Shown: one piece after another, positions 1-21,809 of the stretch
Numbering within the stretch: the stretch's first letter is position 1
How the letters are laid out: each line of letters starts with the position of its first letter
Origin: an uncultured Cryomorphaceae bacterium
GTDB taxonomy: Bacteria > Bacteroidota > Bacteroidia > Flavobacteriales_D > Cryomorphaceae
Direction: 5' to 3'
DNA length: 64,000 bases
Assembly (NCBI GenBank): GCA_963836915.1
Contig: CAWILH010000002.1
Location: 19,010 to 83,009 of the forward strand
Notes under the pieces: model-generated
What the model was told of the DNA's origin: nothing
The model's input: the letters and a program-made list of their open reading frames with translations, nothing else
Databases searched by the model: none
Translations under genes and position numbers: made by a program

Positions 1-114
1 ATTGACAGAACAAAGGATTTTATTAAACAGATTGACAACGTAGATAACGGACTGAAAAACCTTGAACGGCTGAGAAATTGGATAATCGAAAATGAAAACT
101 TGCTACAACAATGA
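1..114 (+). CDS. C-terminal fragment of a gene truncated by the window edge (last gene of the preceding cassette)
   Basis: Frame 1 is open from base 1 (IDRTKDFIKQ...NENLLQQ) to TGA at 112-114. The stop overlaps the inverse core of the first attC-like hairpin. Confidence 0.6.
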   Translation: MDRTKDFIKQIDNVDNGLKNLERLRNWIIENENLLQQ

Positions 115-235
115 ATAACACAAATTGCGGAATACCTTCCAAAAATGCCATTTTTGAGTACCTTTAAAATTACCTTTTTAACTGATAAATTCGAGTTTCC
201 AAGCCGCAACTTGCGTTATTCGGGACGTTGTGCCT
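102..235 (+). other. attC-like recombination hairpin 1
   Basis: Inverse core GCTACAAC (102-109), 3-nt spacer, arm GAATAACACAAATTGCGG pairing with CCGCAACTTGCGTTATTC, 5-nt spacer, core GTTGTGCCT (227-235). Confidence 0.75.
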
Positions 236-349
236 CATTGTGAAAAGCCGACCGCACAAACAGCACATTTGGTTTTTGCCGATACACAAGCCAACGCTTC
301 AAAAACCAAAAGAGCTGTTTTTTGCCAACGCTTGACGGAATAAAATTTG

Positions 350-357
350 TACCTTTG
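350..357 (+). promoter_or_regulatory. Bacteroidota -7 promoter element
   Basis: TACCTTTG matches TAnnTTTG, 14 nt upstream of the ATG at 372. Confidence 0.6.
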
Positions 358-371
358 CGTTTATTAAAAGT

Positions 372-743
372 ATGACAAGATTTTTATACATAGCATTACT
401 TACTCTAATTGGTTTTATTACGACACCAACAGACACCTATGCTTGTGGGTCAAAATCTGAAAACACAGAAAATACTATCAATAAACAGTCAGATTCCAAA
501 ATGGAAAAAAAAGATTGTTGCGATAAAGAAAAAGGACAATGTGGTAAACACGGAAAAGATTGTGACGGAAACTGCGGTAATCCCGCTTGTCATTGTCCTA
601 CTAATTGCACAAACTTTACAATCCCTTTTTTTGACGGACTTTCCCAAGTTAAAGTAGTCGTTAGAAAACCGAATTTTTACTATCAAGATACCTATTATTC
701 ATCAGGGTTTCTTTCCATTTGGCTACCGCCCAAAATAGGCTAA
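372..743 (+). CDS. Cys-rich exported hypothetical protein, first gene of the heavy-metal cluster
   Basis: N-terminal hydrophobic segment and a central Cys/His-rich tract (DCCDKEKGQCGKHGKDCDGNCGNPACHCPTNC). Confidence 0.7.
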   Translation: MTRFLYIALLTLIGFITTPTDTYACGSKSENTENTINKQSDSKMEKKDCCDKEKGQCGKHGKDCDGNCGNPACHCPTNCTNFTIPFFDGLSQVKVVVRKPNFYYQDTYYSSGFLSIWLPPKIG

Positions 744-834
744 TTTCTTGCCCTGACAGCCATAGGTCTGTCCATACGAGAGCATTACCTTGCTTTCGCA
801 ATCAAATATTTTCAAGGACTTAAAATTTAAAAAA

Positions 835-1698
835 ATGAAATCAATAAAAATATTGATGGCAATTACTGTATTGCTATCGTTCACAGCGTTAAACGCTCAA
901 ATCAAAAACGCTAAAACCGAAAGCGTAAAAATTTACGGTAATTGTGGTATGTGCGAAAGTACCATTGAAAAAGCAGGAAATGTTAAGAAAGTAGCCGAAG
1001 TAGATTGGAATAAAGATACCAAAATGGCTACACTTACTTACGATGCGAGTAAAACCAATCAAGAAGAAATCTTGAAACGTATTGCATTAGCCGGTTATGA
1101 CAGTGACCAATTTCTTGCACCTGATGATGTATATGACAAACTTCCTGGATGTTGTCAATACAACCGAGTAAAAAAATCGAAAATGGCAAAATCAGAAGTT
1201 ATGGAAGACCATTCTATGCACAATCACAATGGAACAAAGGACAAGCCAACAGAAACAAAGCAAGAAGTAAATCAACTGAAATCAGTTTTTGATAACTACT
1301 TTTCTCTAAAAGATGCTTTGGTAAAATCTGACGGAAATTTGGCTTCTACCAAAGCCAAAGAATTACTTGCTTCAATTAAAGCTGTAGAAATGGGGAAACT
1401 CACAACCGAAGAACATATGGTTTGGATGAAAGTAATGAAAGACTTGGCTTTTGATGCCGAACATATCGAAGAAACCAAAGATGCGGGGCATCAGCGTGAC
1501 CATTTCACGAGTTTGTCAAAAAATATGTACGAACTGATAAAGGTTTCCAAATCTGAAACGCCAGTTTACTATCAGTATTGCCCAATGTACAATGACGGCA
1601 AAGGTGCAAATTGGTTGAGTAAAGAAAGTGGAATTAAAAACCCTTACTATGGCTCACAAATGCTCACTTGTGGAAAAACGGTTGAAACAATTGAATAA
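835..1698 (+). CDS. HMA-domain + DUF3347 periplasmic metal-binding protein
   Basis: Signal peptide, GNCGMC metal-binding motif, His-rich linker, and C-terminal YCPM...NPYYG..MLTCG typical of DUF3347. Start set at ATG 835. Confidence 0.85.
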   Translation: MKSIKILMAITVLLSFTALNAQIKNAKTESVKIYGNCGMCESTIEKAGNVKKVAEVDWNKDTKMATLTYDASKTNQEEILKRIALAGYDSDQFLAPDDVYDKLPGCCQYNRVKKSKMAKSEVMEDHSMHNHNGTKDKPTETKQEVNQLKSVFDNYFSLKDALVKSDGNLASTKAKELLASIKAVEMGKLTTEEHMVWMKVMKDLAFDAEHIEETKDAGHQRDHFTSLSKNMYELIKVSKSETPVYYQYCPMYNDGKGANWLSKESGIKNPYYGSQMLTCGKTVETIE

Positions 1699-1719
1699 TA
1701 ACAATAAAAAATTAAGAAA

Positions 1720-2346
1720 ATGAAAAATATCAATTTAAAATTAATGATTGCCTTATTAAGCGGAAGTTTAATTATGGCAAGTTGCGGAAATAATTCCAAA
1801 TCGGAAAACGATTCCCATCAGAATGAAGAAGGAATGGAACACGACCACTCCAATCACGAGCACGGAGGTACAGAAGAAAACAGAAATGTATCTGCCAATA
1901 TCGGGGAAATGAAGGGCGATATTTCTATTGTTTTAAGCGATTATTTTGCTTTGACAGAAAGTCTTGTTCAGGATGATGCAGCTGCTGCAGCAGAATCGTC
2001 TGAAAAGTTAGTGACTTCCTTAAAGGGATTTAAAGGTTCCAGACTTTCAGAAGATGAACAAAAGGAAGTGAATGATATTTTGGAAACTGCCATTGAAAAT
2101 GCAGAACACATTTCCGAAAATGCGGGGGAGATTAGTCATCAACGGGAACATTTGGTTTCTTTAAGCACAGACATTAAAGATTTGATAGCCATTATCGGGA
2201 CTTCTCAAAAATTATATGAAGCTTTCTGTCCAATGGCTAATAATAATAAAGGAGCCATTTGGATAAGCAACAAGGAAGCAATAAGTAATCCATATATGGG
2301 AACTAAAATGCCAACGTGTGGGAAAGTTCAAAATGTTATCAACTAA
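1720..2346 (+). CDS. DUF3347 lipoprotein (metal cluster)
   Basis: Lipobox MASC, His-rich segment, FCPM...NPYMG..MPTCG motif. Confidence 0.85.
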   Translation: MKNINLKLMIALLSGSLIMASCGNNSKSENDSHQNEEGMEHDHSNHEHGGTEENRNVSANIGEMKGDISIVLSDYFALTESLVQDDAAAAAESSEKLVTSLKGFKGSRLSEDEQKEVNDILETAIENAEHISENAGEISHQREHLVSLSTDIKDLIAIIGTSQKLYEAFCPMANNNKGAIWISNKEAISNPYMGTKMPTCGKVQNVIN

Positions 2347-2850
2347 ATGATGAAGTGGTTGAAAAGAATAGCGATTCTTTTGGTGGTTATATTGGTCGGG
2401 GTGCAATTTATCCCGACTGATATTAACCAACAGGATTACATCCCAAAAGCTGACATTCGCTATATTTATGATGTTCCGGGAAACGTAATGAATATTTTGC
2501 AAACTTCCTGTTACGATTGTCATAGCAATAACACCAAGTATCCTTGGTATAGCAATTTGCAACCTATGCGATTGTTAATGGATGGACATATTCGTGAAGG
2601 AAAGGAAGAACTTAACTTCAATGAATTTGGTAATTATTCCCAACGTAAACAAAAAAACAAACTGGACAGAATTTCAAAACAGGTTAAGGCAGATGAAATG
2701 CCCTTGCCTTCATATCTTCTGATGCACAGTAACGCAAAACTTTCTGATGATGATAAACAAAAAATTATTAATTGGGTAGAGACCCGACTTAAACAAAATG
2801 AATTTGATCCCCCCGCAAGTTACCAGAACGTAAATCCATTACGTTGCTGA
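2347..2850 (+). CDS. Heme-binding (cytochrome c-like, Haem_bd) protein; C-terminus extended by IS1595
   Basis: CYDCH heme motif and distal EMP. The native end KQNE-stop is restored if the IS is removed. Confidence 0.85.
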   Translation: MMKWLKRIAILLVVILVGVQFIPTDINQQDYIPKADIRYIYDVPGNVMNILQTSCYDCHSNNTKYPWYSNLQPMRLLMDGHIREGKEELNFNEFGNYSQRKQKNKLDRISKQVKADEMPLPSYLLMHSNAKLSDDDKQKIINWVETRLKQNEFDPPASYQNVNPLRC

Positions 2851-3797
2851 CATCTAGTTTTGAAGAAAAAACAAGATGAATATACTCAGATTTATGGAAG
2901 AGTTTCCAAATAACGCGGCTTGCCAAGCTCATTTCAAGCTTCAACGAGAGCAGGAAGGAGTAAAATGCAAAAGGTGTAAAGGCATGGATCACTATTGGCT
3001 TGCGAGTAAGGATCAATGGGAATGCAAAGCTTGTGCTTTCCGCACCACGCTTAAAAGTGGAAGTATTATGCACGGTTCAAAAGTCGATTTTCATACGTGG
3101 TACACAGCAATGGCGTTTATGACATTCAGTAAGAAGACTATTTCGGCGATGGAGCTTCAGCGCCAGCTGGAGCACCCAAAATACGATACCGTATGGCGAC
3201 TGATGCATAAGATTCGGGATGCAATGGGTCAGCGCGACGCCCTTTACCATTTAGAAGGAGCTGTTGAATTTGACGAAGGGTACTTTGAAAAAGCGACTTC
3301 AGAAAAAATAAAACTTAAGCGGGGCAGGGGTTCACAAAGGCAAATGAATGTAGCCGTGATGGCTGAATCTACACCACTTGAAGACATTGAAACAGGTGAA
3401 AAGGGTAGCCATTGCCGATATTTTAAAATGCAAGTGCTAAATGATCACAAAGCTGATACTGTAACCGAACTTGTTGAAGATAACTTTGATGAGTCTTGCA
3501 TTGTGTTTTCAGATAAAAGCACCAGTTACGTTGATATAGCTGATCATGTAGAGGTGCACGTTACAGAAAAATCTGATAGGCATACCACTAAAACAACATT
3601 GAAATGGGTGCATATCGCAATAAGCAATGCAAAACGAACCTTGCTCGGGGTATTCCATAAGATAAAGGGAAAGTATTTGCAGTCATACTTGAATGAATTC
3701 TGTTACAAGCTGAACCACAGGTACTTTGGAAATAGAGTTTTTGACCGGTTAACGCTCGCAGTGGCTAAAACCTACTGGTAAGATATGGGGGGATCAA
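2804..3797 (+). mobile_element. IS1595-family insertion sequence
   Basis: Terminal IRs TTGATCCCCCC..TTACCAG / CTGGTAA..GGGGGGATCAA. Flanking direct repeat AAAATGAAT at 2795-2803 and 3798-3806. Confidence 0.9.
2876..3781 (+). CDS. IS1595-family transposase
   Basis: N-terminal Zn ribbon (CKRC, CKAC), VEFDEGY, FSDK..SY, YLNEFCY motifs. Confidence 0.92.
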   Translation: MNILRFMEEFPNNAACQAHFKLQREQEGVKCKRCKGMDHYWLASKDQWECKACAFRTTLKSGSIMHGSKVDFHTWYTAMAFMTFSKKTISAMELQRQLEHPKYDTVWRLMHKIRDAMGQRDALYHLEGAVEFDEGYFEKATSEKIKLKRGRGSQRQMNVAVMAESTPLEDIETGEKGSHCRYFKMQVLNDHKADTVTELVEDNFDESCIVFSDKSTSYVDIADHVEVHVTEKSDRHTTKTTLKWVHIAISNAKRTLLGVFHKIKGKYLQSYLNEFCYKLNHRYFGNRVFDRLTLAVAKTYW

Positions 3798-3809
3798 AAA
3801 ATGAATAAA

Positions 3810-4451
3810 ATGAAATATATCCCTGCATTAGGTTACGATTTTTTAACAGCCTACTACGATATGGCAATAAAAATCACTATGCCCGAAAAGAAGTTCAGAA
3901 GGCTTTTGGTCGAAGAAATAAACCCACAAGCAAACGAACAGATTTTAGAGTTTGGTTTTGGTACAGGTCAAAATTTGCTTTTGGTACACAAGGCGAACCC
4001 AAATACAAAATTAGAAGGTTTGGATATTGACCATAAAGTAAAAGCCATTGCCGAGCATAAATTGGCAAAAGATAATATTGAAATCCCATTGCACTTGTAC
4101 GATGGTAATGTTTTGCCTTTTGCCGACAATAGTTTTGAAAAAGTTTACAGTTGCTTGGTCTTTCATCAATTAGATGCTGAAACGAAACTGAATTGCCTTA
4201 AAGAATTGCATCGTGTTATGAAACCCAACGGAAAACTCATTATTGCCGATTGGGGTAAAGCACAAAACAAATTGATGCGATTAACTTTTGGTTTAGTTCA
4301 GTTATTAGACGGTTTCAAAACTACCAATGATAATGTTAAAGGATTGATGCCCAATTTTATTTCAAAGGCAGGTTTTGAAGATGTAGTGGTAACAAACTCT
4401 ATCAATACAGCAATTGGCACATTTTCTTATTTCAACGCAATTAAAAAATGA
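3810..4451 (+). CDS. Class I SAM-dependent methyltransferase
   Basis: ILEFGFGTG motif I and GLDID motif. The ATG at 3801 lies in the IS target duplication, so the native start is 3810. Confidence 0.85.
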   Translation: MKYIPALGYDFLTAYYDMAIKITMPEKKFRRLLVEEINPQANEQILEFGFGTGQNLLLVHKANPNTKLEGLDIDHKVKAIAEHKLAKDNIEIPLHLYDGNVLPFADNSFEKVYSCLVFHQLDAETKLNCLKELHRVMKPNGKLIIADWGKAQNKLMRLTFGLVQLLDGFKTTNDNVKGLMPNFISKAGFEDVVVTNSINTAIGTFSYFNAIKK

Positions 4452-4461
4452 AATTTCTCAA

Positions 4462-6721
4462 ATGGATAATCAAAAAAATATTTTTAAAAAACTGTTGCCG
4501 ATAGTTGTTTTACTATTGGTAACTACAAACATATTCGCCCAAAAAGTGGTGCGATATGACCTTTACGTAAAAGATACCATCGTTAATTTTACAGGAAAAG
4601 AAAAAAGGGCAATTGCCGTAAATGGGCAAATTCCTATGCCAACGCTCACGTTTACCGAAGGCGACACGGCAGAAATTTACGTACATAACCAACTTAAAGA
4701 AGGTACATCCTTGCATTGGCACGGTTTGTATTTGCCTAATAAAGAAGACGGTGTGCCTTACTTAACCCAAATGCCCATTGAACCAAATACAACACACGTT
4801 TATCGTTTTAAAATCATACAAAACGGAACACATTGGTATCATAGCCACAGCGGACTTCAAGAGCAAATAGGAATGTACGGTTCTCTGATTTTGAAAAAAA
4901 GAGAAGACGACCCTTCTTTCAGAAAAGGTATTGACGATTTGCCAACTGTTCCTGTCATTTTAAGCGAATGGACAGACTACAATCCAGATAATGTACACCG
5001 TATGTTACACAATGCATCGGATTGGTTCGCAATTAAAAAAGGAACAACTCAAAGTTATGCTGAAGCCATTAGAGAAGGACATTTCAAAACGAAAGTTACT
5101 AACGAATGGAAACGAATGTTAGCAATGGATGTGAGTGATATTTATTACGATAAGTTTCTTATCAACGGAACATCAGAAAGTCAACTATCACAATTCAAGG
5201 CGGGTGATAAAGTAAGATTGCGAATTTCAAACGGTGGTGCATCGTCCTATTTTTGGCTCACTTATGCAGGTGGAAAAATAACCGTAGTTGCCAATGACGG
5301 AAATGATGTAGAACCTGTGGAAGTGGATAGATTGATTATAGGCGTTTCAGAAACGTATGATGTAATCGTTACAATTCCAGCAGAAAATACGTCTTACGAA
5401 TTTTTGGCTACACCCGAAGACCGCACCAAGTCGGCTTCTATCTATATTGGTTCAGGCATCAAACAGTTGGTAAATCCATTACCAAAATTGAAATATTTTG
5501 AAGGAATGAAGATGATGAACGATATGATGAAAATGAATGGGGATATGAAAGATATGGGTATGAATATGAGCCTGCAACAAATGGATATGAACACAGTAAT
5601 GTATCCTGAAATTACGGGCGAAAAGAAACCTATGAAAATGGATAAAATGCCAGAAATGGATATGGAGAATATTGAACGATTCCAATCACGGTTCAGGAAA
5701 TACGGATATTGTAACCCTCAATTACGCTATGTTGAAATCACCTACAATAACAACGTTGCCAAAAGATGCACCAATCAGGGAATTAAGGTTTGAATTAACA
5801 GGCAATATGAACCGATATGTGTGGAGTATGGACAATAAAGTGCTTGCTGAAACCGATAAAATATTGATTAAAAAAGGAGAAGTTGTAAGAATTACAATAT
5901 ACAATAATTCTATGATGCGACACCCTATGCACTTACACGGTCACGATTTTAGAGTTATCAATGGGCAAGGCGATTATGCACCACTCAAAAACGTATTGGA
6001 TATTATGCCTATGGAAACCAATGTAATTGAATTTGAAGCCAATTTAGAAGGCGATTGGTTTTTTCATTGTCATATTCTCTACCATATGATGGCAGGAATG
6101 AACCGTGTTTTTAGTTATGAAAACCAAGCTCCAAATCCGTTGTTGCCTGACAAAAAATGGGCTTACAAAAAATTACAGCGAGAAAGCAACGCTTTGCATT
6201 TTATGGCACAAAATGACTTTGCAACCAACGGAAATGACGGAATGGCAATGCTGCAAAATGCTCGATGGAGTTTTGGGACAGAATGGCGTTTGGGATATAA
6301 CGACAGACACGGTTACGAGAGTGAAACGCACATTGGTAGATATATTGGAAAAATGCAATGGCTGCTGCCCTTTGTTGGATTTGATTGGCGTTACAGAAAA
6401 TTAGGACATAACGAAGTAGAAACAAACCTATTCGGACAAAAAAATACCAAAGACAACCGTACACAATTCAGTCTTGGTGTTGCCTACACTTTGCCAATGC
6501 TTTTAATTTTGCAAACCGAAATCTATCAAGATGGAAATGTAAGAATTCAATTAAGGAGAGAAGATATACCCATATCAAAAAGGTTTAGAGCCACATTTAT
6601 GGTAAATACTGACAAGGAATATATGGTTGGACTAAATTATATAGCAAGTAAAAATTTTGGATTTAAAACACATTACGATAGTGATATGGGATTTGGTGTA
6701 GGATTGACATTGAATTATTAA
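4462..6721 (+). CDS. Multicopper oxidase with C-terminal CopB-like barrel region; one frameshift near 5670
   Basis: LHWHG, WYHSH, HPMHLHGH and FFHCHILYH copper motifs are split over ORFs 4414-5793 and 5672-6721. Met-rich linker. Confidence 0.9.
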
Positions 6722-6838
6722 AGCCAACTCAGTAGCAATACACATTACCAAGTCGCACAAGGCGACACACAAACCAAAACTTGGCAAAGAGTATGGCTAC
6801 CCCAACGCTGACTGACAAACTGAAAAAAGAAACAACGA

Positions 6839-6851
6839 AGGCACAACATTG
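6839..6851 (+). other. Left part (inverse core) of attC-like site 2, split by IS110
   Basis: AGGCACAAC is the exact reverse complement of GTTGTGCCT at 227-235. It continues after the IS at 8090. Confidence 0.75.
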
Positions 6852-6899
6852 AACTGTGGTAAAATCCAAGAAAATTGGTGACTTTTTAATGTGTTTTTT

Positions 6900-7877
6900 T
6901 TAATTCAATTGCGGTTTTATACTTCTATAATTTTGGTCATAGATCAGTCCGGATTTTGCAATGGCAAATGCTTGTTTCATCAACTTATTTGCTACCGCTA
7001 TTAATGCCAGCTTTTTACACTTCCCTTTGGCCAAGATTCTTTCATAAAGTTCCCTACATGTTTTATTGGATTTACAGGCGTTAAAACTACACATGAACAG
7101 GAGATTTCTGAGCTTTGGGTTGCCCTGTTTGCTGATTCCTGATCTTCCTCTTACACTGCTACCAGATCGTTTTTCAACTGGAGTCATCCCTATGTAACAG
7201 GTAAATTGTTTGGCACTCTCAAACTTTTTGAAACCATCGCTCAGAACGATCATGAACATAGCGGTACTTTTTCCTATTCCTGGAATAGTCTGAAGCCTTG
7301 AGAACAGATCAGCTTCATTTTCTTCAATCAATTTTTTTAACTCTCTTTCCAGTTTCTTGATCTGGGTGGTTAAATCTGAAATAGTTTTTTCCAGAGGCTT
7401 GATCAGTATACTTCTGTGCTTAGCTGATTTGTGCTCCATGGCATGTAATCTGTTCTTGATCATGGTTCTACCCTTTATGAGCAAATCTATATTCTCGCTT
7501 ATTATGCGGCTTTCTTTTACATACTTTGATGAAGGCCTATAAGCTTTAAGCTCATGCTGACGTGCATATTTACATATCATCTCAGCATCGGACTTGTCGG
7601 TCTTGATGCGCCTGAGATTCATTTGAATGAAGCGCTTGATCACAAGCGGATTTACAACTGAAACAAACACTGATTCAGCGTATAGAAAATCTGCCAACTG
7701 GGTGTGGTATACTCCCGTAGCCTCCATAACAAAACAACCCTTTCTGTCTATTTCTTTTAAGAAAGATTTAAAACCTTTTAGATCGTTTGTGAACTGAAGA
7801 TACCTACCTTCTGCATCCATCACATCAAATACATCCTTGGATATGTCTATCCCGTAATAATTACTAAATTTATCCAT
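6900..7877 (-). CDS. IS110-family recombinase/transposase
   Basis: GIDISKD, VMEATG, KTDKSDA (DEDD) motifs; TIPGIG and RSGSS (catalytic Ser region). Start at ATG 7877. Confidence 0.95.
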   Translation of the reverse strand: MDKFSNYYGIDISKDVFDVMDAEGRYLQFTNDLKGFKSFLKEIDRKGCFVMEATGVYHTQLADFLYAESVFVSVVNPLVIKRFIQMNLRRIKTDKSDAEMICKYARQHELKAYRPSSKYVKESRIISENIDLLIKGRTMIKNRLHAMEHKSAKHRSILIKPLEKTISDLTTQIKKLERELKKLIEENEADLFSRLQTIPGIGKSTAMFMIVLSDGFKKFESAKQFTCYIGMTPVEKRSGSSVRGRSGISKQGNPKLRNLLFMCSFNACKSNKTCRELYERILAKGKCKKLALIAVANKLMKQAFAIAKSGLIYDQNYRSIKPQLN

Positions 7878-7894
7878 AATACTTAAGTTTGGAA

Positions 7895-8065
7895 GAACGG
7901 ATCTACTGCTATCCAACAACCTGGAAACAGGCTCTAAAAGGCCTAACGAACTGTTCAGATTAATAGTAGAAAAAGAGAGGGGACTTTCAATGTTGACGGG
8001 TTTAAATCCTCGTGTATAAGCTAGTCTTATTCCTCTCTTTCGTTCTTTTATTTATAGTCGCTAAT
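7895..8065 (-). ncRNA. Putative IS110 bridge RNA (boundaries approximate)
   Basis: Two stem-flanked loops. Stem 7972-7980/8032-8040 encloses segments matching the target (7988-7995, 8013-8019). Stem 7902-7907/7965-7970 encloses segments matching the element ends (7948-7954, 7917-7922). Confidence 0.8.
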
Positions 8066-8086
8066 TTAATGGATTGTAAACTTAGG

Positions 8087-8210
8087 TTGCATATAGCTTA
8101 TGGCGGGATTGTCCTCTATTCGAGATATGATCTTTGAATCAGGATTATCCTGGGATGAAAGTTTTATCTTCGGAAGCCGCCACTGCGCCAAGCGCCAAAA
8201 CGTTAGGCAC
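8087..8210 (+). other. Right part of attC-like site 2
   Basis: 8089-8183 is 82/95 identical to 12651-12745 (manual count). It ends in core GTTAGGCAC (8202-8210); the 3' arm is degenerate. Confidence 0.7.
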
Positions 8211-8218
8211 CATATAGA

Positions 8219-8800
8219 ATGTCAAGATATATCAGTTTAGCATATCAGTTCTTTAATTTAACTCGCGAGACCATTAATGAAATGGAAAAGCAAGGAAATG
8301 ACCTCGATATTTTTTCTGACGGTGAGATGACTGATGATGAGTCTTGGGAGAATTATGAGAATGAAACTAGATGGAGTGATCAAAACATTGGTGTTCCGAC
8401 ATTATTCAATTTCTATCACGGCCTAGAATTGCTGATGAAAGGGTTAATCGAGAGATCGGGGTATCAATTGAAGTCTAATCATAAGCTAACAGAACTCCTT
8501 GCAACAGTAAAAGAAATACCTGAAGTAACCGATAGTTTAATAGAAGCTTTGGAAATACATCTTTATGATGATAATCCATTTTTCGAATTCTTTCAAGAGA
8601 ATGGAGGTAACGTGGACAAGTACTTTGAGCTTCTGAAATATCCTGAATCTAAAAATGGAGAAAAATTCAACTTTCAGTTTATACGTGGACGTGAAAAAGA
8701 AGGATTAAAGAGACTTTCAACAATAAGAGATGCAACAATAAAACTTAAAGAAGAAATTATCCTCATGATTAAAAAAACAAAGACGTTAGGCGCCATTTAA
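8219..8800 (+). CDS. Cassette gene, HEPN-like hypothetical protein
   Basis: FYHGLELLMKG...NHKLTELL...LLKYP pattern resembles HEPN-fold proteins. ATG lies 17 nt after the core G. Confidence 0.5.
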   Translation: MSRYISLAYQFFNLTRETINEMEKQGNDLDIFSDGEMTDDESWENYENETRWSDQNIGVPTLFNFYHGLELLMKGLIERSGYQLKSNHKLTELLATVKEIPEVTDSLIEALEIHLYDDNPFFEFFQENGGNVDKYFELLKYPESKNGEKFNFQFIRGREKEGLKRLSTIRDATIKLKEEIILMIKKTKTLGAI

Positions 8801-8801
8801 A

Positions 8802-15928: not shown

Positions 15929-17719
15929 TCAAATCTCCCTTAAAAATCCCGGTTTATTCTTTCGGTCATTGATGCGGGCGGCGGCGTTTACCAAACCTAC
16001 ATGGCTATAAGCCTGCGGGAAGTTGCCCCACATCGATCCATCGCGCTCATCCACATCTTCGCTCAGAAGCCCTACGTGATTGCTATAGCTTATTATTTCT
16101 TCAAAGGCTTCCATGGCATCATCCACGCGGCCTACACAGGCAAGCGCTTCGGCGTACCAGAAGCCGCAGATGAGAAAGGTCGTCTCGGGCTCGCCAAAAT
16201 CATCGGCCTGCTTATAGCGGTAGAAGAGTCCCTTGCCAGCCCGCAGGTCTTTCTCCAGAGCCTTTAGATGATCCTTCGCCCGGTCAGAGTGGTGGGGGAT
16301 ATAGCCCATGATGATGAGCTGGAGTGTGCTGGCATCCATATGTACATCGCCTATGCCACGGGCGTAGGCCTTGCGGTCGGTGAGGTAACACTTGCTGATC
16401 AGAGCATCTGCGCGATCTATCAATTTTTGCGCACGCACTTGGAGCGGCTTGTTCTCGAGCTTTTGGGCTATCAAGCGCGCGGCATTGCTTCCCGCCCATT
16501 GAAAAAGGTTGGTATAGGCGTGCTGGTAGGCCAAGTTTCGAAACTCCCATATTCCCGCATCGGCTTCATCGATGGTCATCTCGATTTTATCAAGCACTGA
16601 ACTCACCAGCCGGTCGGTCTCCGCGCCAGGATGATCTTTGAAGCGATCATCCACATAGAGCGGTAAGATTGCCAAGAGTATCTGCCCATAAACATCATTT
16701 TGAATGTGGGTATAAGCATCATTTCCAGTTCGCACGGGCGTATTGTCAAGATAGCCCGGCAGGTCGTGCTCCAATTCGGTGAGTACCGCTTCTCCTCCTA
16801 TCCCGTACAGTGGCTGTATGCGCTTCCCATCGGCCAGGGGTATGTTGGTGATGTACGAGAAGTACTTCTCCATCTCTTCAAAATGGCCTATATTATTGAA
16901 GGCATTTAGGGTATAATAAGTGTCCCGCATCCAGCAATAGCGGTAATCCCAGTTGCGCGTGCTTCCCGGCGATTCGGGCAGCGATGTGGTGGGCGATGCG
17001 ATGATGCCGCCGGTATCTTCGTACTGACAGATCTTCAGCGCCAGTGCAGAACGTATCACCGCTTCTTGGTAGAGCGGGCCTATACTGGTAGATTTCACCC
17101 AGCGCTGCCAATAATTGCGCGTGCGCGTGAGAAAGGTCTCGCAGGTCTCTTGCAGGGCACCTTCGAGCGGCACACCGTACGAAAGGATCATATAGCAGGT
17201 CTCCCGAAGCACAAATTCGGTTCCATCCAAAATATAGCTCAGCGGAATATTGGTGGTAAGGCGCAGCGATTCTTCCAGCCCACTATAGCGTATATGATTG
17301 CTGCCCCGCTCCACATCCAGCTCTTTTTTACCATAATCGCCTACGGGCAGGCAGGTGGCCTTCACGCGTGGGAATCCATCTACCGGCTCTATCTTCCGTA
17401 TCAAGAACGCCGGCCGGTAGTACCGGTCATTTTGCATAAATCGCGGTGCAAAGTCGGTGACGCGGTAGCTTCCATCGCCAGTGCTTATCAGCGTGGTAAG
17501 GATGTTGGTATTTGAAACATACTTCTGGTTGCATTGATAGTCTTTTGCAGCAGGCTTTATGCTAAATTGACCGCCCTTTTGCCCCGCTATCAATTCGCCA
17601 AATACAAAAGTGCTGTCGAAGCGCGGCAGGCACATCCATGTTATATTGGTGTCGGTGCCGATCAGCGCCAAGAAAGCGCAATTGCCAATAAGTCCGTAAT
17701 TGTATTGATGTTTTGCCAT
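15929..17719 (-). CDS. Glycoside hydrolase family 15 (glucoamylase/trehalase-like)
   Basis: TTSLPE..G..RNWDYRYCWMRD, GIWEFR and GNFPQAYSH motifs. Confidence 0.93.
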   Translation of the reverse strand: MAKHQYNYGLIGNCAFLALIGTDTNITWMCLPRFDSTFVFGELIAGQKGGQFSIKPAAKDYQCNQKYVSNTNILTTLISTGDGSYRVTDFAPRFMQNDRYYRPAFLIRKIEPVDGFPRVKATCLPVGDYGKKELDVERGSNHIRYSGLEESLRLTTNIPLSYILDGTEFVLRETCYMILSYGVPLEGALQETCETFLTRTRNYWQRWVKSTSIGPLYQEAVIRSALALKICQYEDTGGIIASPTTSLPESPGSTRNWDYRYCWMRDTYYTLNAFNNIGHFEEMEKYFSYITNIPLADGKRIQPLYGIGGEAVLTELEHDLPGYLDNTPVRTGNDAYTHIQNDVYGQILLAILPLYVDDRFKDHPGAETDRLVSSVLDKIEMTIDEADAGIWEFRNLAYQHAYTNLFQWAGSNAARLIAQKLENKPLQVRAQKLIDRADALISKCYLTDRKAYARGIGDVHMDASTLQLIIMGYIPHHSDRAKDHLKALEKDLRAGKGLFYRYKQADDFGEPETTFLICGFWYAEALACVGRVDDAMEAFEEIISYSNHVGLLSEDVDERDGSMWGNFPQAYSHVGLVNAAARINDRKNKPGFLREI

Positions 17720-17817
17720 TTTTGGTTCTTTGGTGGATTAGACCTATTTTAAGCGGTTTGGTTCTCTAGTTCTCTCACAGTGGGGTAGAATTGGTTCAGG
17801 CTATTCTGCCAATGTTT

Positions 17818-19338
17818 TTAACGTCTTTTAATTCCCAATACGCCAAGAATCCCACGGGTCACTTCACGCACCACCGTTCGCGTCACCGAGCTTGCCATGA
17901 TGGTTTCAAAAGTGCTTTTTTTAGTTCGCGAGGTACGGGTGGTTTTTACCACTTCCACTTCTTTCGCTTTGACTTCTTCGGCTTTCGCCAATTTTGCGGT
18001 AAGCAGCTCGTAGGCGCTCTCCCGATCTACTTCCTGATTATATTTCGGTATGAGCTGGCTCTTTTTGAGCACCTGTTCGATCTCTCGATCGGTAAGGATA
18101 TCCATGCGCGATTGAGGCGCTTTCAGTAGCGTGTGTACCACCGGTGTGGGTCGTCCTTTCTCATTGAGCAATGTGATGAATGCTTCTCCTATACCCATGG
18201 CGGTGAGCAGTTGATCGGTCTCGTAAAACTCCGTGATGGGGTAGTTTTGAGCTACTTGCCTTATGGCTTTACGATCATTTGCCGTAAAGGCGCGCAAAGC
18301 ATGTTGCACTTTCATACCGAGCTGCCCGAGCACATCATCGGGTATGTCGGTGGGCAATTGGGTACAGAAAAAGATCCCCACGCCCTTCGATCGGATCAGT
18401 TTTATGATGGTTTCCAATTGGTCGCGCAGGGCTTTCGATGCTTCTTCAAACATCAGGTGGGCTTCATCAATAAAGATCACGAGTTCAGGCCGCTCGGCAT
18501 CGCCCCTTTCGGGAAATTTCTCGTAGATCTCGGCCAGCAGACACAGCATAAAGGTTGAAAATAATGCCGGCTTGCTCTGCATATCGGCCAGCCTGATCGT
18601 GCTTATCATCCCGCGGCCATTGGCATCGAGACGCACCAGATCGTTTACATCGGTACTTACTTCGCCAAAAAAACGCGACGCACCCTGCTGCTCCAGCGCC
18701 AGCAATTTTCGCATGATGGCACCCACGCTACTGGTGCTTACCAGCCCATACGAGCGCTGCACTTCATCTTTGGCCGCACCGGTGATGTGTTGCAGGGCAG
18801 CCCTGAAATCCTTTATGTCGAGCACGGGTAGGTGGTGATCATCGCAGTATTTGAAAGTAAGCGCCACAATACCTTCCTGTGTATCGTTGAGCCCTAGAAT
18901 CTTGCTGAGCAGTACGGGGCCAAACTCGCTGATAGTGGCACGCAGCCTTACTCCCGGCTCATCGGAGAGTGACATAAGCTCGAGCGGGAAGGCCAGCGGT
19001 AGCCAGCTTTCGCCAATCTTGGCGTGGCGCTCATCTATTTTGGGATGCGGATTTCCCCCCGCAGCCAGTCCGCTCAGGTCGCCCTTTATATCCATCAATA
19101 ATACCGGCACTCCCGCCTTTGAGAGCCCTTCGGCAATTCCTTGCAGCGTCTTGGTCTTGCCCGTGCCGGTGGCTCCCGAAATGAGTCCGTGGCGGTTGAA
19201 CATACTCAGGGGCGCGCGCACTTGGAGGCCTTCTACCGCTTCGCCTTCGTGCATGGCGCCGCCCATCAAAATAGAATCTCCTTTGAAAGTATATGCGGCT
19301 TTTATAGCTTCCGCAAAGGCGGTTGAATCATTACTCAT
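17818..19338 (-). CDS. DUF853 / HerA-like ATPase (YjgR family)
   Basis: NRHGLISGATGTGKT Walker A, FIDEAH Walker B, RSKGVG..FCTQ. Confidence 0.9.
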   Translation of the reverse strand: MSNDSTAFAEAIKAAYTFKGDSILMGGAMHEGEAVEGLQVRAPLSMFNRHGLISGATGTGKTKTLQGIAEGLSKAGVPVLLMDIKGDLSGLAAGGNPHPKIDERHAKIGESWLPLAFPLELMSLSDEPGVRLRATISEFGPVLLSKILGLNDTQEGIVALTFKYCDDHHLPVLDIKDFRAALQHITGAAKDEVQRSYGLVSTSSVGAIMRKLLALEQQGASRFFGEVSTDVNDLVRLDANGRGMISTIRLADMQSKPALFSTFMLCLLAEIYEKFPERGDAERPELVIFIDEAHLMFEEASKALRDQLETIIKLIRSKGVGIFFCTQLPTDIPDDVLGQLGMKVQHALRAFTANDRKAIRQVAQNYPITEFYETDQLLTAMGIGEAFITLLNEKGRPTPVVHTLLKAPQSRMDILTDREIEQVLKKSQLIPKYNQEVDRESAYELLTAKLAKAEEVKAKEVEVVKTTRTSRTKKSTFETIMASSVTRTVVREVTRGILGVLGIKRR

Positions 19339-19745
19339 TCTAAAATTTTAATCATTATTTAACCCTGTTTTTAATTAGGTTCTAGTCAGAATATTAAAAT
19401 CATTCTATTCTTGTATGCCCGATTTATGCACGGACTTCCTGTCGCGGCGAATTTAGGAATTTTGGTTTTGCCTTAAGCCGGGTGGGTGAAAACTTGTCGG
19501 GTAAATAATCTGAAGCCCTTCAAGGTCGAACCCCTGCAGAACCCCGCCAAAGAGCATCTGCACGTCCATTTTGGGAAGCTCATACTTGTGGCATTATCGG
19601 CCGCCCGCACAGGGTCGAGCCTGTGAACCGGCTCTAGTCATAATGGGAAGCTATTTCTATTTTTGCGGAAGCAATACCGTCTTCACGGTTGTCCAAAAGA
19701 TGATTACGATTAAAACCATTCTTCTATATTTGAGCTTCAAAAAAA

Positions 19746-21809
19746 ATGATAGAACCCATGACTAGCTCCTTCCTAAAAATTTCTGGTATCGCTGTAAGCA
19801 TCCTGTTCCTGACTTCCTGTGGTGATCAGGGCGCAGAGAAAAGCGCTGCCGAGACGGCCGACTCTACCGCTGCCGACGACTTTATGTATATGACGGAGCA
19901 GTTTGACGATATCAAAATCATACGCTATCAAATTCCGGCGTGGGATGAACTCTCGATGAACAATAAGAAGTTGGCCTACTACCTTACCCAAGCCGGACTG
20001 GCCGGAAGGGATATGATGTACGATCAAAATTACCGCCATAATCTGGTGATACGAAGAACACTGGAAGACGCTTACCGCGCGTATGAAGGCGATAAGGAAG
20101 CTGCCGACTGGAAGGCTTTTGAGACCTACCTGAAGAAAATCTGGTTCTCGAACGGAATCCATCACCACTATTCCCATGATAAATTTGAGCCGGGATTTAC
20201 ACGTGAATATTTAGGCAAATTGATGGAAGCTAGCGGCGGTAAGTTGTCGGAAGAAGTGCTGAATGTGATCTTCGATCCGTCCATCGATGCTAAAAAGGTC
20301 ACAAAGGATGCTACCAAGGATCTGGTTTTGGCCAGCGCTATTAATTTTTATGGCCCGAATGTGACCACCGCCGATGTGGAGAGCTATTACAAGAAGCTGA
20401 TGGCCGATAAAGACCCGGAGCGGCCTATATCTTATGGGCTTAACTCACGATTGGTAAAAGACTCTACCGGCACGCTATCTGAAAAGGTATGGAAAGTAGG
20501 CGGGATGTACAGCGCTTCATTGATAAAAGTGATAGGGTGGCTGGAGAAGGCAACGAGTGTAGCTGAGAATCCGCAGCAGAAAGAAGCGCTTGAGCTTTTG
20601 ATCGAATATTACCGTACGGGGGATCTTAAGAAATGGGATGATTATAATATCGCTTGGGTGAAGGATACGACCAGCACAGTAGATTATATCAATGGGTTTG
20701 TGGAAGTGTATAATGACCCGCTCGGCTACCGAGGCTCTTATGAGAATATCGTTGAGATTCGTGATCTGGATGCATCCAAAAAGATGAAGGTGATCGCCGA
20801 GAATGCACAGTATTTTGAAGATGTATCGTCTATCATGGATGAGCATAAAAAGAGCAAGGTGGTAGGGATATCCTATAATTTTATCAATGTAGCCGGCGAA
20901 GCTGGAGATGCTTCTCCATCTACCCCTATTGGTGTAAACTTGCCCAATGCCAACTGGATACGTGCGGAGCATGGATCTAAATCGGTAAGTCTGGGTAATA
21001 TCGTAGGCGCCTATGATAAGGCTGGTACATCCGGATTTTTGAAAGAATTCAGTAATGACAGCAACGAGATCATGCTCTCTAAGAAATATGGGAAGCAAGC
21101 CGATAAATTGCTTACCGCACTACACGAGGTCATCGGCCACGCTAGCGGAAAGATCAATCCCGGAGTTGGCACTCCGAAGGAAACGATGAAGAACTATTCT
21201 TCTACCCTTGAAGAAGCGCGTGCCGACCTCGTAGCACTCTACTATATGCTCGACCCGAAGCTTATCGAAATGGGAGTAATGGACGACCTTGACGTGGGGC
21301 GCCATGCCTATGATGACTATATCAAGAACGGCCTTATGCTTCAGCTGCGCCGCTTAAAGGCAGGCGAGATCATCGAAGAAGACCATATGCGAAACCGGCA
21401 GTTAAATGCTTCATGGGCATTCGAAAAGGGCGAAGCTGAAAATGTGATCTCTCAGGTGAAGCGCGATGGAAAGACCTATTTTGAAATCAATGATTACGAT
21501 AAGCTGCGAACCATCTTCGGCGATCTGCTACGGGAGATTCAGCGCATAAAATCTGAAGGAGACTTCCCGGCAGCGCAGGCGCTGGTAGAAGATTATGGCG
21601 TACAGGTAGATCAGGCAATCCACGCTGAGATGCTCGAGCGCTCGGCACAGTTTGACAGTGCACCATACGGTGGCTTTATCAATCCGCGCCTAGTGCCGGT
21701 TGAAGAAGATGGTTTTATAACCGATATCAAGGTTGAATACCCTACCGATTTTGCAGGTCAGATGCTGGAGTACGACGAAAAGTACACCACGCTTCCGGAT
21801 GTGAATTAA
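19746..21809 (+). CDS. Dipeptidyl peptidase III (peptidase M49), lipoprotein
   Basis: HEVIGH (HEXXGH) and EEARAD zinc motifs, GINLPN-like GVNLPN, lipobox LTSC. Confidence 0.93.
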   Translation: MIEPMTSSFLKISGIAVSILFLTSCGDQGAEKSAAETADSTAADDFMYMTEQFDDIKIIRYQIPAWDELSMNNKKLAYYLTQAGLAGRDMMYDQNYRHNLVIRRTLEDAYRAYEGDKEAADWKAFETYLKKIWFSNGIHHHYSHDKFEPGFTREYLGKLMEASGGKLSEEVLNVIFDPSIDAKKVTKDATKDLVLASAINFYGPNVTTADVESYYKKLMADKDPERPISYGLNSRLVKDSTGTLSEKVWKVGGMYSASLIKVIGWLEKATSVAENPQQKEALELLIEYYRTGDLKKWDDYNIAWVKDTTSTVDYINGFVEVYNDPLGYRGSYENIVEIRDLDASKKMKVIAENAQYFEDVSSIMDEHKKSKVVGISYNFINVAGEAGDASPSTPIGVNLPNANWIRAEHGSKSVSLGNIVGAYDKAGTSGFLKEFSNDSNEIMLSKKYGKQADKLLTALHEVIGHASGKINPGVGTPKETMKNYSSTLEEARADLVALYYMLDPKLIEMGVMDDLDVGRHAYDDYIKNGLMLQLRRLKAGEIIEEDHMRNRQLNASWAFEKGEAENVISQVKRDGKTYFEINDYDKLRTIFGDLLREIQRIKSEGDFPAAQALVEDYGVQVDQAIHAEMLERSAQFDSAPYGGFINPRLVPVEEDGFITDIKVEYPTDFAGQMLEYDEKYTTLPDVN

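Follow-up and report, generated by a model that had tools for sequence, protein, structure and literature searches.

Can an operon of six genes move as a single gene cassette and, if so, which enzyme would move it? The question is raised by a copper-related gene cluster near the left end of a 64-kb stretch of DNA from an uncultured Cryomorphaceae bacterium (contig CAWILH010000002.1, positions 19,010–83,009; hereafter the window). The cluster very probably constitutes a single gene cassette within an array of the integron type that fills the first ~15 kb of the window, and the likely enzyme is a 377-aa XerA/IntI-like recombinase encoded beside related arrays. This interpretation is carried by the anatomy of the cassette, by its exact junctions in several surroundings, by the structure and covariation of the recombination sites, and by the link between the recombinase gene and the arrays.

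Analysis of open reading frames (ORFs) and Pfam domains agreed with the genes listed in a first-pass annotation of the window. The parts of the cassette are given below, where R1 is a covariance model that was built only from sites in other loci.

101–235, + strand: attC-like site of the preceding cassette, crossover at 226|227 (R1 56.5 bits, E 1.3e-11; outside the training set), with R'' CTACAAC, AATG spacer, stem 113–130/204–221, CGGGAC spacer and R' GTTGTGCCT
227–235, + strand: predicted R' box GTTGTGCCT, the first 9 nt of the cassette and the reverse complement of its own R'' box
236–345, + strand: conserved A+C-rich leader with a hairpin (258–278/300–320) followed by T6
350–357, + strand: TACCTTTG, which fits the Bacteroidota -7 consensus TAnnTTTG, 15 nt before the first ATG
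372–743, + strand: Cys-rich small protein of 123 aa (ORF), with a hydrophobic N-terminus
835–1698, + strand: HMA + DUF3347 protein (PF11827 1.9e-26; PF00403 3.1e-05, at 24.7 bits slightly below the 24.8-bit cut-off)
1720–2346, + strand: DUF3347 protein (PF11827 7.1e-20)
2347–2850, + strand: Haem_bd (heme-binding-domain) protein (PF14376 1.4e-48)
3801–4451, + strand: class I SAM-dependent methyltransferase (Methyltransf_11, Methyltransf_25; ORF intact)
4462–6721, + strand: three-domain multicopper oxidase (Cu-oxidase_3, Cu-oxidase and Cu-oxidase_2, spread across two ORFs)
6722–6838, + strand: conserved trailer with a hairpin formed by an inverted repeat (6732–6753/6779–6800)
6839–6847, + strand: predicted R'' box AGGCACAAC of the cassette's own attC

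The domains suggest that the operon has a role in copper handling, and it may contribute to copper tolerance. No Pfam or NCBIfam family matched the Cys-rich protein, PADLOC gave no match for the small cassette proteins, positions 1–13,000 of the window yielded no Rfam match, and a tRNA scan gave no tRNA. The site at 101–235, in which an inverted repeat also was found, folds with -22.9 kcal/mol on the bottom strand compared to -15.9 kcal/mol on the top strand.

The first-pass annotation placed the cluster between matching 9-mers. Indeed, GTTGTGCCT at 227–235 (+ strand) and its reverse complement AGGCACAAC at 6839–6847 have no other exact copies in the window, and copies of GTTGTGCCT with one mismatch were present at chance level. 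An inverted match of at least 9 nt arose in 9% of trials when both intergenic stretches were shuffled at the same sizes, and the 9-mer pair taken alone is weak evidence for a cassette. The repeat might be fortuitous and the cluster an ordinary copper operon that was moved, if ever, by an insertion sequence (IS), a conjugative element or homologous recombination. The shuffling result, the four ISs in or near the region, and the G+C content of the first 10 kb (36% vs. ~48% in the rest of the window) are what such an origin would predict. Nevertheless, it is exceedingly improbable: the junctions are base-exact in IS-free surroundings, the IS1595 and IS110 elements in the window copy both are absent from other copies of the cassette, neighboring units follow the same 9-mer rule, and positions 1–10,500 of the window matched none of 72,556 plasmid records.

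The boundaries of the cassette were defined by comparison with other copies. The exact sequence of the Cys-rich protein is encoded on 11 further contigs. Contigs L001 (135 kb) and L002 (429 kb) carry the whole cluster in unrelated surroundings, without ISs and with an intact 752-aa oxidase, and copies of the cluster placed in the different surroundings of the L001 and L002 types are 98–99.9% identical to the window copy. Similarity to the window begins at 226/227 in L001, L002, L003 and L005–L009, whose upstream sequences differ. To the left of the G of GTTGTGCCT the sequence is wholly different, with three distinct left neighbors that all are joined at |GTTGTGCCT. The break in synteny that was proposed as a check on the left boundary thus is present, at 226/227, in every copy. 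On the right side, L001 and L002 are the same for 113 nt beyond R'' and diverge exactly at CTAACC|GTT, after which L001 reads GTTATCGCT and L002 reads GTTGTAATG. Two different right neighbors are joined, therefore, after the cassette's own attC, at |GTT. A long imperfect hairpin, with arms TATATAAAAAATAGGCGAGAT and ATCGCCTACTTTTCATATA, occupies the 113 nt that follow AGGCACAAC. In L001, L002 and L095, a further contig of the L001 type from a metagenome scan, R'' AGGCACAAC is followed by AATG, the 113-nt hairpin and CTAACC|GTT, with R1 scores of 99–104 bits. The intact cassette extends 113 nt past R'', ends at CTAACC|GTT and measures ~5.7 kb (5,734 nt at positions 9856–15589 of L002). The right limit set originally at 6847 was correct in so far as similarity between the copies and the window ends at 6848–6851, but that position belongs to the inner R'' box and is not the end of the cassette. 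Contigs, as opposed to raw reads, from seven public runs also contain the cassette unit without ISs, and ATGTATATAAAAAATAGGCGAG directly follows position 6848 in four DNA runs.

Is the cluster divided by internal sites? When the whole window was searched with R1, matches were obtained at 101–235, 8073–8210, 9526–9658 and 12639–12771, all on the + strand, with no site within 236–6847 or past 15 kb. The model also detected no site inside the copper cassette in L001, L002, L095 or L092, the last of which bears a second version of the cassette. The six genes therefore comprise one cassette. Together with the constant left junction in three surroundings and the constant right junction in two, this outcome upholds the original claims that the cluster is a single cassette and that it lacks an internal hairpin site.

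Why, then, are the ends of the cluster marked by an inverted 9-mer? Judged by sequence, the two 9-mers represent the predicted boxes R' and R'' in an attC site of the integron type, and the inverted repeat exists because GTTGTGCCT, at the start of the cassette, would pair with AGGCACAAC in the circularized cassette. The organization recurs in related arrays. A cassette starts with G|TTRnnnnn (the R' box), continues with one or several genes, and ends with its own attC-like site in the order R'' (nnnnnYAAC), a spacer of 1–5 nt, a long stem, a variable loop, the return arm, and a spacer of 5–9 nt that ends in C. The first 9 nt of a cassette are the reverse complement of its own R'', a rule that chains neighboring cassettes in L002 (3981 > 6803 > 9856 > 15590 > 16273), L010 (11236 > 17439 > 19235), L011 (11253 > 12043 > 14289 > 15491) and many other loci. 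In the window, the 9-mer rule also holds for the cassette at 8202–9650 and, with an insertion, for that from 9651 to ~10360.

The attC-like sites were characterized in a collection of 88 distinct examples of 77–187 nt (median 136). Each element by which attC sites are recognized is present, namely an imperfect palindrome, R''/R' boxes, L boxes and a variable loop. The AAC and GTT triplets are invariant within the consensus GCnnMYAAC ... C|GTTR. An A follows AAC in 81/88 sites and a C precedes GTT in 81/88, an arrangement in which G-T pairing is possible only on the bottom strand. The bottom strand was more stable in 68 of the 88 sites and the top strand in 18 (Wilcoxon p = 2.6e-10). All 17 predicted stem pairs showed compensatory double changes in an alignment of 38 sites, although sites for the structural statistics were chosen partly for complementarity and the covariation counts are not fully independent. 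A hairpin test on bare inverted 9-mer pairs was added for this reason: the pair was followed by a hairpin in 72/173 cases downstream of the recombinase gene vs. 3/178 upstream. Gapless pairing of the L arms extends over 18 bp at the median (10th percentile 10), and no base is bulged near the R box. By this measure of gapless arms, the sites lack the extrahelical bases of classical attC, and their asymmetry derives instead from unequal spacers, mostly of 2–3 nt vs. 5–9 nt as scored with the stem finder.

Which recombinase is associated with these sites? In L002, the gene that directly precedes the array, on the same strand, encodes a 377-aa tyrosine recombinase. The complete 3.38-Mb genome L010 has a recombinase 98% identical to that of L002 and the same upstream genes, but wholly different cassettes. 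Identity between both loci persists throughout the stretch that follows the recombinase stop codon, up to their divergence at ACAAG|TTA, which marks attI. The plan of this region is conserved across orders: in 31 loci, species-specific inverted repeats are followed by ...TATA(A/T)AC(A/T)A|GTTR ~100 nt after the stop codon. When 82 loci (1.03 Mb) were searched with R1 on both strands (E <= 1e-4), 115/115 matches were on the recombinase strand and 114/115 were downstream of the gene. The sole upstream match is at 9290–9422 in L011 (45.7 bits, same strand). Similarly, a finder based on the 9-mer rule retrieved 82 cassettes in 295 kb downstream vs. 3 in 672 kb upstream, with the first cassette starting ~100 nt after the stop codon. 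The observation that 21 of 83 recombinase contigs end at most 300 nt after the stop codon suggests that assemblies break where the variable array begins.

Members of the recombinase family share 50–69% identity across Flavobacteriales, Cytophagales, Chitinophagales, Bacteroidales metagenome-assembled genomes and Ignavibacteria, and the catalytic residues are invariant. The closest solved structures by sequence are archaeal XerA proteins, which align contiguously. In the comparison with VchIntIA, 60 residues (179–238) that form the IntI-specific region face 18 profile positions; profile positions 107–276 align to VchIntIA residues 9–178 and positions 295–374 to residues 239–318, and ~42 residues are missing. 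The protein scores 214 bits on TIGR02249, below the cut-off of 265, and 223.6 bits vs. a cut-off of 220 on NF040815 (XerA / integron integrase). An AlphaFold model made from an alignment (pLDDT 79.9), which was used because the single-sequence model was poor (pLDDT 53), comprises an Xer-like core and an extra N-terminal beta/alpha domain of ~70 residues; VchIntIA and XerA were the joint best matches in a fold comparison. The recombinase adjoining the related arrays thus is devoid of the IntI-specific domain and is not a classical integron integrase. In classical integrons, the IntI-specific domain reads the extrahelical bases, as seen in the VchIntIA-attC structure. The lack of this domain and the lack of extrahelical bases therefore fit together.

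These results bear on two further explanations. The cassettes could be ordinary integron cassettes mobilized by a canonical IntI that is encoded elsewhere in the genome, the XerA-like gene serving only as a landmark or insertion hotspot. The classical R''-L''...L'-R' layout of the sites with YAAC/GTTR boxes and a G|TT crossover, the recombinase score below the TIGR02249 cut-off, and a report of IntI without attC (In0) in Bacteroidetes (10.1101/2022.02.28.482270) accord with this possibility. It is considered unlikely because the arrays start ~100 nt after the XerA-like gene, on the same strand, in dozens of genomes from several orders, because an attI-like region with species-specific repeats exists at each locus, because a canonical intI was seen in none of the loci examined, and because the gapless stems do not present the bases that the IntI domain reads. 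The second explanation equates the cassettes with Xer/dif-type modules, as in IMEX and Acinetobacter pdif, that are recombined in double-stranded form by a housekeeping Xer-like enzyme and in which the hairpins are incidental. The contiguous alignment of the recombinase with XerA, its nearest relative by sequence, without an IntI insertion is as expected for such an enzyme, as are its high, housekeeping-like conservation across the phylum and the palindromes in the attI regions. The sites are another matter: they are long and structured, in contrast to 28-bp dif-like sites with an 11-6-11 organization; their stems covary while the sequence drifts, with folding biased to one strand; all 115 model matches are co-oriented rather than alternating; and the pairing of the first 9 nt of a cassette with its own R'' is sensible only for a folded site in a circle. 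The dif-type explanation consequently is improbable as well.

In an integron-type array served by the XerA-like recombinase, which is the preferred interpretation, the tyrosine recombinase would act on the folded bottom strand of the site, with strand exchange at G|TT of R'. Recombination between two neighboring sites would excise a circle that in turn would integrate at attI ~100 nt downstream of the recombinase gene. The excised copper circle would carry the junction …CATATACTAACC|GTTGTGCCTCATTG… (…TTTTCATATACTAACC|GTTGTGCCTCATTGTG…). The candidate enzyme is the 377-aa protein with the ~70-aa additional N-terminal domain and no IntI-specific insertion, encoded directly upstream of such arrays and on the same strand across Bacteroidota. 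The window array's own recombinase would lie to the left of position 1.

Several points, in addition to the partial selection of sites for complementarity, weigh against this interpretation. The hairpin after R'' AGGCACAAC is of one kind in L001/L002, of a second in L096/L097 and of a third in the window, which is the exception to copper-cassette junctions that otherwise lie exactly at |GTT; therefore, either cassette and hairpin do not always move together or rearrangements of another sort occur. The copper cassette in L001 follows a sequence that is neither attC nor an obvious attI, and a recombinase gene is absent from the 20 kb examined around it. The window contains no XerA-like recombinase, and its sole integrase-like gene (11633–12480) points in the wrong direction. 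Excision and integration by the XerA-like recombinase are deduced from anatomy and comparative data. As to the surroundings in L001, the upstream context of the cassette (9615–9855, also present in L095) reads ...GGTGTTTAGCCTTTA|GTT and is located beside three tandem SSB genes on the opposite strand.

Does the cassette depend on the array for its expression? The promoter-like motif TACCTTTG at 350–357, in place of which the second cassette version in L092 has TATCTTTG, makes it plausible that the cassette possesses its own promoter. Contigs of one transcriptome run cover 469–6786 and nothing outside, which is compatible with a transcript that is confined to the cassette; this evidence is weak because the contigs may include DNA. 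The inverted repeat in the leader is 21 nt with 90% complementarity, and a function of the hairpin as a transcription insulator or terminator would be a guess. Leader copies with 80–88% identity and compensatory stem changes are found at cassette starts in L001, L010, L013, L036, L081, L092, L096 and L097, and trailer copies with 75–76% identity directly precede R'' in L013, L096 and L097 cassettes. The window copies of leader and trailer have no Rfam match. In view of the promoter-like motif and the conserved leader and trailer hairpins, the cassette probably is independent of the array promoter. Elements of the leader/trailer type, with a hairpin of the CACATTTGG...CCAAAAGAG type and CCAACGC motifs, also were noted at L001 15599–15705, L010 19244–19338, L013 16694–16774 and 19677–19769, and in L096 and L097, mostly in large, otherwise unrelated cassettes.

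The first-pass annotation further proposed that the system moves large operons, a view that the cargo of related arrays sustains. Among ~82 distinct cassettes the median length is 1.1 kb and cassettes of classical size (0.4–1.5 kb) are the majority, but 24 exceed 2 kb. The largest confirmed example is a 6.2-kb cassette for TetR and an ABC/MacB-type efflux system (L010 11236–17439) without an internal R1 match, followed by the second version of the copper cassette (6.0 kb, L092) and the 5.7-kb version. L002 includes a cassette opening onto a mer operon for an ArsR-type regulator, MerT-HMA, MerB and MerA (16273–20372), as well as a three-gene cassette and a restriction-modification cassette. GmrSD-type genes likewise were found as cassettes in related arrays. 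In L092 (135–6130), the same copper operon, with 98.5% identity over 263–6791 of the window, is placed inside different R'/R'' boxes (GTTGGCAGC...GCTGCCAAC) with another attC. Conversely, in L096 and L097 the GTTGTGCCT...AGGCACAAC frame encloses different genes, for proteins of 107 and 1214 aa. Cargo and frame therefore are exchangeable.

The array in the window runs from before position 1 to ~15.1 kb, beyond which there is ordinary chromosome of ~48% G+C. Among named organisms, Cryomorphaceae are closest to the window by its proteins. The features that interrupt or follow the copper cassette are listed here.

2804–3797, + strand: IS1595-family element of 994 bp, transposase at 2876–3781 (PF12762 3.4e-24)
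6849–8088, - strand: IS110-family element, transposase at 6900–7877 and upstream non-coding region at 7878–8088 (NF033542 218 bits vs. a cut-off of 140)
8089–8201, + strand: right-hand part of an attC, a remnant (R1 match 8073–8210, 26.6 bits); the next cassette starts at 8202 (GTTAGGCAC)
8202–9650: cassette with two ORFs
After 9650: cassette encoding a 185-aa protein
~10.4–12.6 kb: inserted IS91-type unit with a broken integrase, 55% G+C within the 36% G+C array
10501–11433, - strand: IS91-family Y2 transposase
11633–12480, - strand: frameshifted tyrosine recombinase
12639–12771, + strand: complete attC
12763 to ~15,075: last cassette, interrupted by an IS4-type transposase (DUF4372 + DDE_Tnp_1) at 13331–14554

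The integrase-like gene at 11633–12480 was rejected as the recombinase of the array because of its frameshift, its location next to an IS91-type Y2 transposase, its G+C content of 55% and its convergent orientation relative to the cassettes. A junction-like sequence of 25 nt (AAAACGTTAGGCACCATATAGAATG) at 8197–8221 is repeated with 84% identity at 8780–8804, between both ORFs of the 8202–9650 cassette, and looks like the scar of two cassettes that were fused through loss of an attC. The last cassette has a slightly deviant R'' (CCTGCTAATC), and downstream of this cassette no attC was detected.

The window copy of the copper cassette is decayed compared to those in L001 and L002. The IS1595-family element has 29-nt terminal inverted repeats and a 9-bp target duplication, AAAATGAAT, at 2795–2803 and 3798–3806, which along with its transposase are the hallmarks of this family. 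It is located where the heme-binding and methyltransferase genes overlap and is missing in all other copies, with a joint of 2794>3798 in five runs. As a result of the insertion, the last 15 codons of the Haem_bd gene are new sequence read into the element; by comparison of C-termini with L002, the intact stop codon is at ~2805. The methyltransferase retains an N-terminus identical to that in L002. The oxidase has a +1 frameshift near 5673, where the window reads ATTGAACGATTCC vs. ATGGACCATTCC in L002, and its three domains are split between ORFs at 4414–5793 and 5672–6721, whereas the protein is intact in L001, L002 and L092. One letter fewer is present at the frameshift in 4/5 runs with contigs there, and the frameshift is not in the other copies checked.

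The IS110-family element is inserted in the R''-L'' spacer, with TT at both junctions and ends placed to within ~2 nt. It exhibits the attributes of the family, namely a DEDD transposase, a long non-coding region and site-specific insertion. The 211-nt upstream non-coding region, which has no Rfam match, contains CAACATT and TAGCTTAT, corresponding to both sides of the reconstructed target; these guide-like 7- and 8-mers might hint, suggestively only, at RNA-guided targeting of such sites by the IS. Look-ups of the exact transposase protein gave no match, and the ends were deduced from one copy because there is no second copy in any locus examined. The attC remnant that follows at 8089–8201 differs from the hairpin carried by intact copies of the copper cassette. 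It is a hybrid that is 86% identical to 12651–12745, through the arm and loop of the complete site at 12639–12771, whereas its last ~25 nt (TGCGCCAAGCGCCAAAAC) are of another site type, which leaves the outer stem unpaired. The hybrid could have arisen by recombination between two IS copies or through a rearrangement at R''. On the basis of these lesions, the window copy probably has lost both its mobility and its oxidase function.

What do the arrays imply beyond this locus? On balance, we lean towards the view that Bacteroidota and Ignavibacteria carry a widespread, unrecognized counterpart of integrons. Its XerA-like recombinase, which possesses a novel N-terminal domain but not the IntI-specific one, would act on attC-like hairpins without extrahelical bases, and entire self-expressed operons up to ~6 kb in length (copper, mercury, efflux, restriction-modification) would routinely be shuttled from chromosome to chromosome. 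The usual tools for integron detection would overlook such a system because they need the IntI C-terminal profile and attC sites <4 kb apart. The literature searched contained no description of such arrays or of the recombinase as their partner; papers beyond it may exist. The view of cassettes as small, mostly single-gene and promoterless influences how searches are designed and what integrons are expected to spread. If the proposal is correct, movement of complete, self-regulated operons would represent a different scale of gene transfer and give environmental and fish- or animal-associated flavobacteria a direct means of spreading metal resistance, and perhaps other resistances. If the system works without the IntI domain and extrahelical bases, it bears on how integrases recognize folded DNA and on the origin of integrons from Xer-like recombinases. 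Moreover, one operon in two frames, and one frame with two cargoes, provide natural data of a rare kind on the long-open question of cassette formation.

How do the arrays compare with known systems? The resemblance to classical integrons is extensive. In both, a co-oriented cassette array adjoins a tyrosine recombinase gene and attI; the sites are imperfect palindromes of ~60–190 nt with the R''(YAAC)-L''-loop-L'-R'(GTTR) order and a G|TT crossover; the site travels at the 3' end of the cassette and is more stably folded on its bottom strand; sites from the same genome are alike; and arrays are riddled with ISs. The intI gene also points the same way as the cassettes in the 'inverted integrase' group of integrons. 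The differences lie in the recombinase, which here has the extra ~70-aa N-terminal domain and lacks the IntI-specific domain, in the long, gapless stems without extrahelical bases, and in the many multi-gene cassettes of up to 6.2 kb. The IntI-specific domain is necessary for activity according to Messier and Roy (2001), as cited in PMC9668308. Reviews give the content of a cassette as one ORF, sometimes two or none (PMC8618304), and Cury et al. (2016; PMC4889954) refer to a length of ~2 kb for the longest cassettes known, which 'rarely contain promoters'; the copper cassette exceeds the largest reported integron cassette about threefold. In Bacteroidetes, only In0 elements were known earlier, and one complete integron was described in Salinibacter ruber with IntegronFinder 2.0 (10.1101/2022.02.28.482270).

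IMEX and the pdif modules of Acinetobacter share with the arrays an Xer-like recombinase, modules bounded by short inverted sequences, and multi-gene cargo for metal or drug resistance. However, their sites are double-stranded, dif-like (28 bp, 11-6-11) and alternating, whereas those here are long, covarying, co-oriented hairpins beside a dedicated attI. The element at 6849–8088 is comparable to the IS1111-attC group, in that an IS110-family (DEDD) element occupies a cassette recombination site in the spacer beside R'', but the placement of its long non-coding region, upstream of the transposase, conforms to the IS110 layout in the contrast drawn between both types in PMC11187229. Finally, the promoter-bearing cassettes of Vibrio superintegrons, such as toxin-antitoxin cassettes, resemble the copper cassette and its promoter-like motif in that they bring a promoter and comprise more than one gene (PMC8618304), but consist of two small genes in ~0.5–1 kb in contrast to six genes in 5.7 kb.

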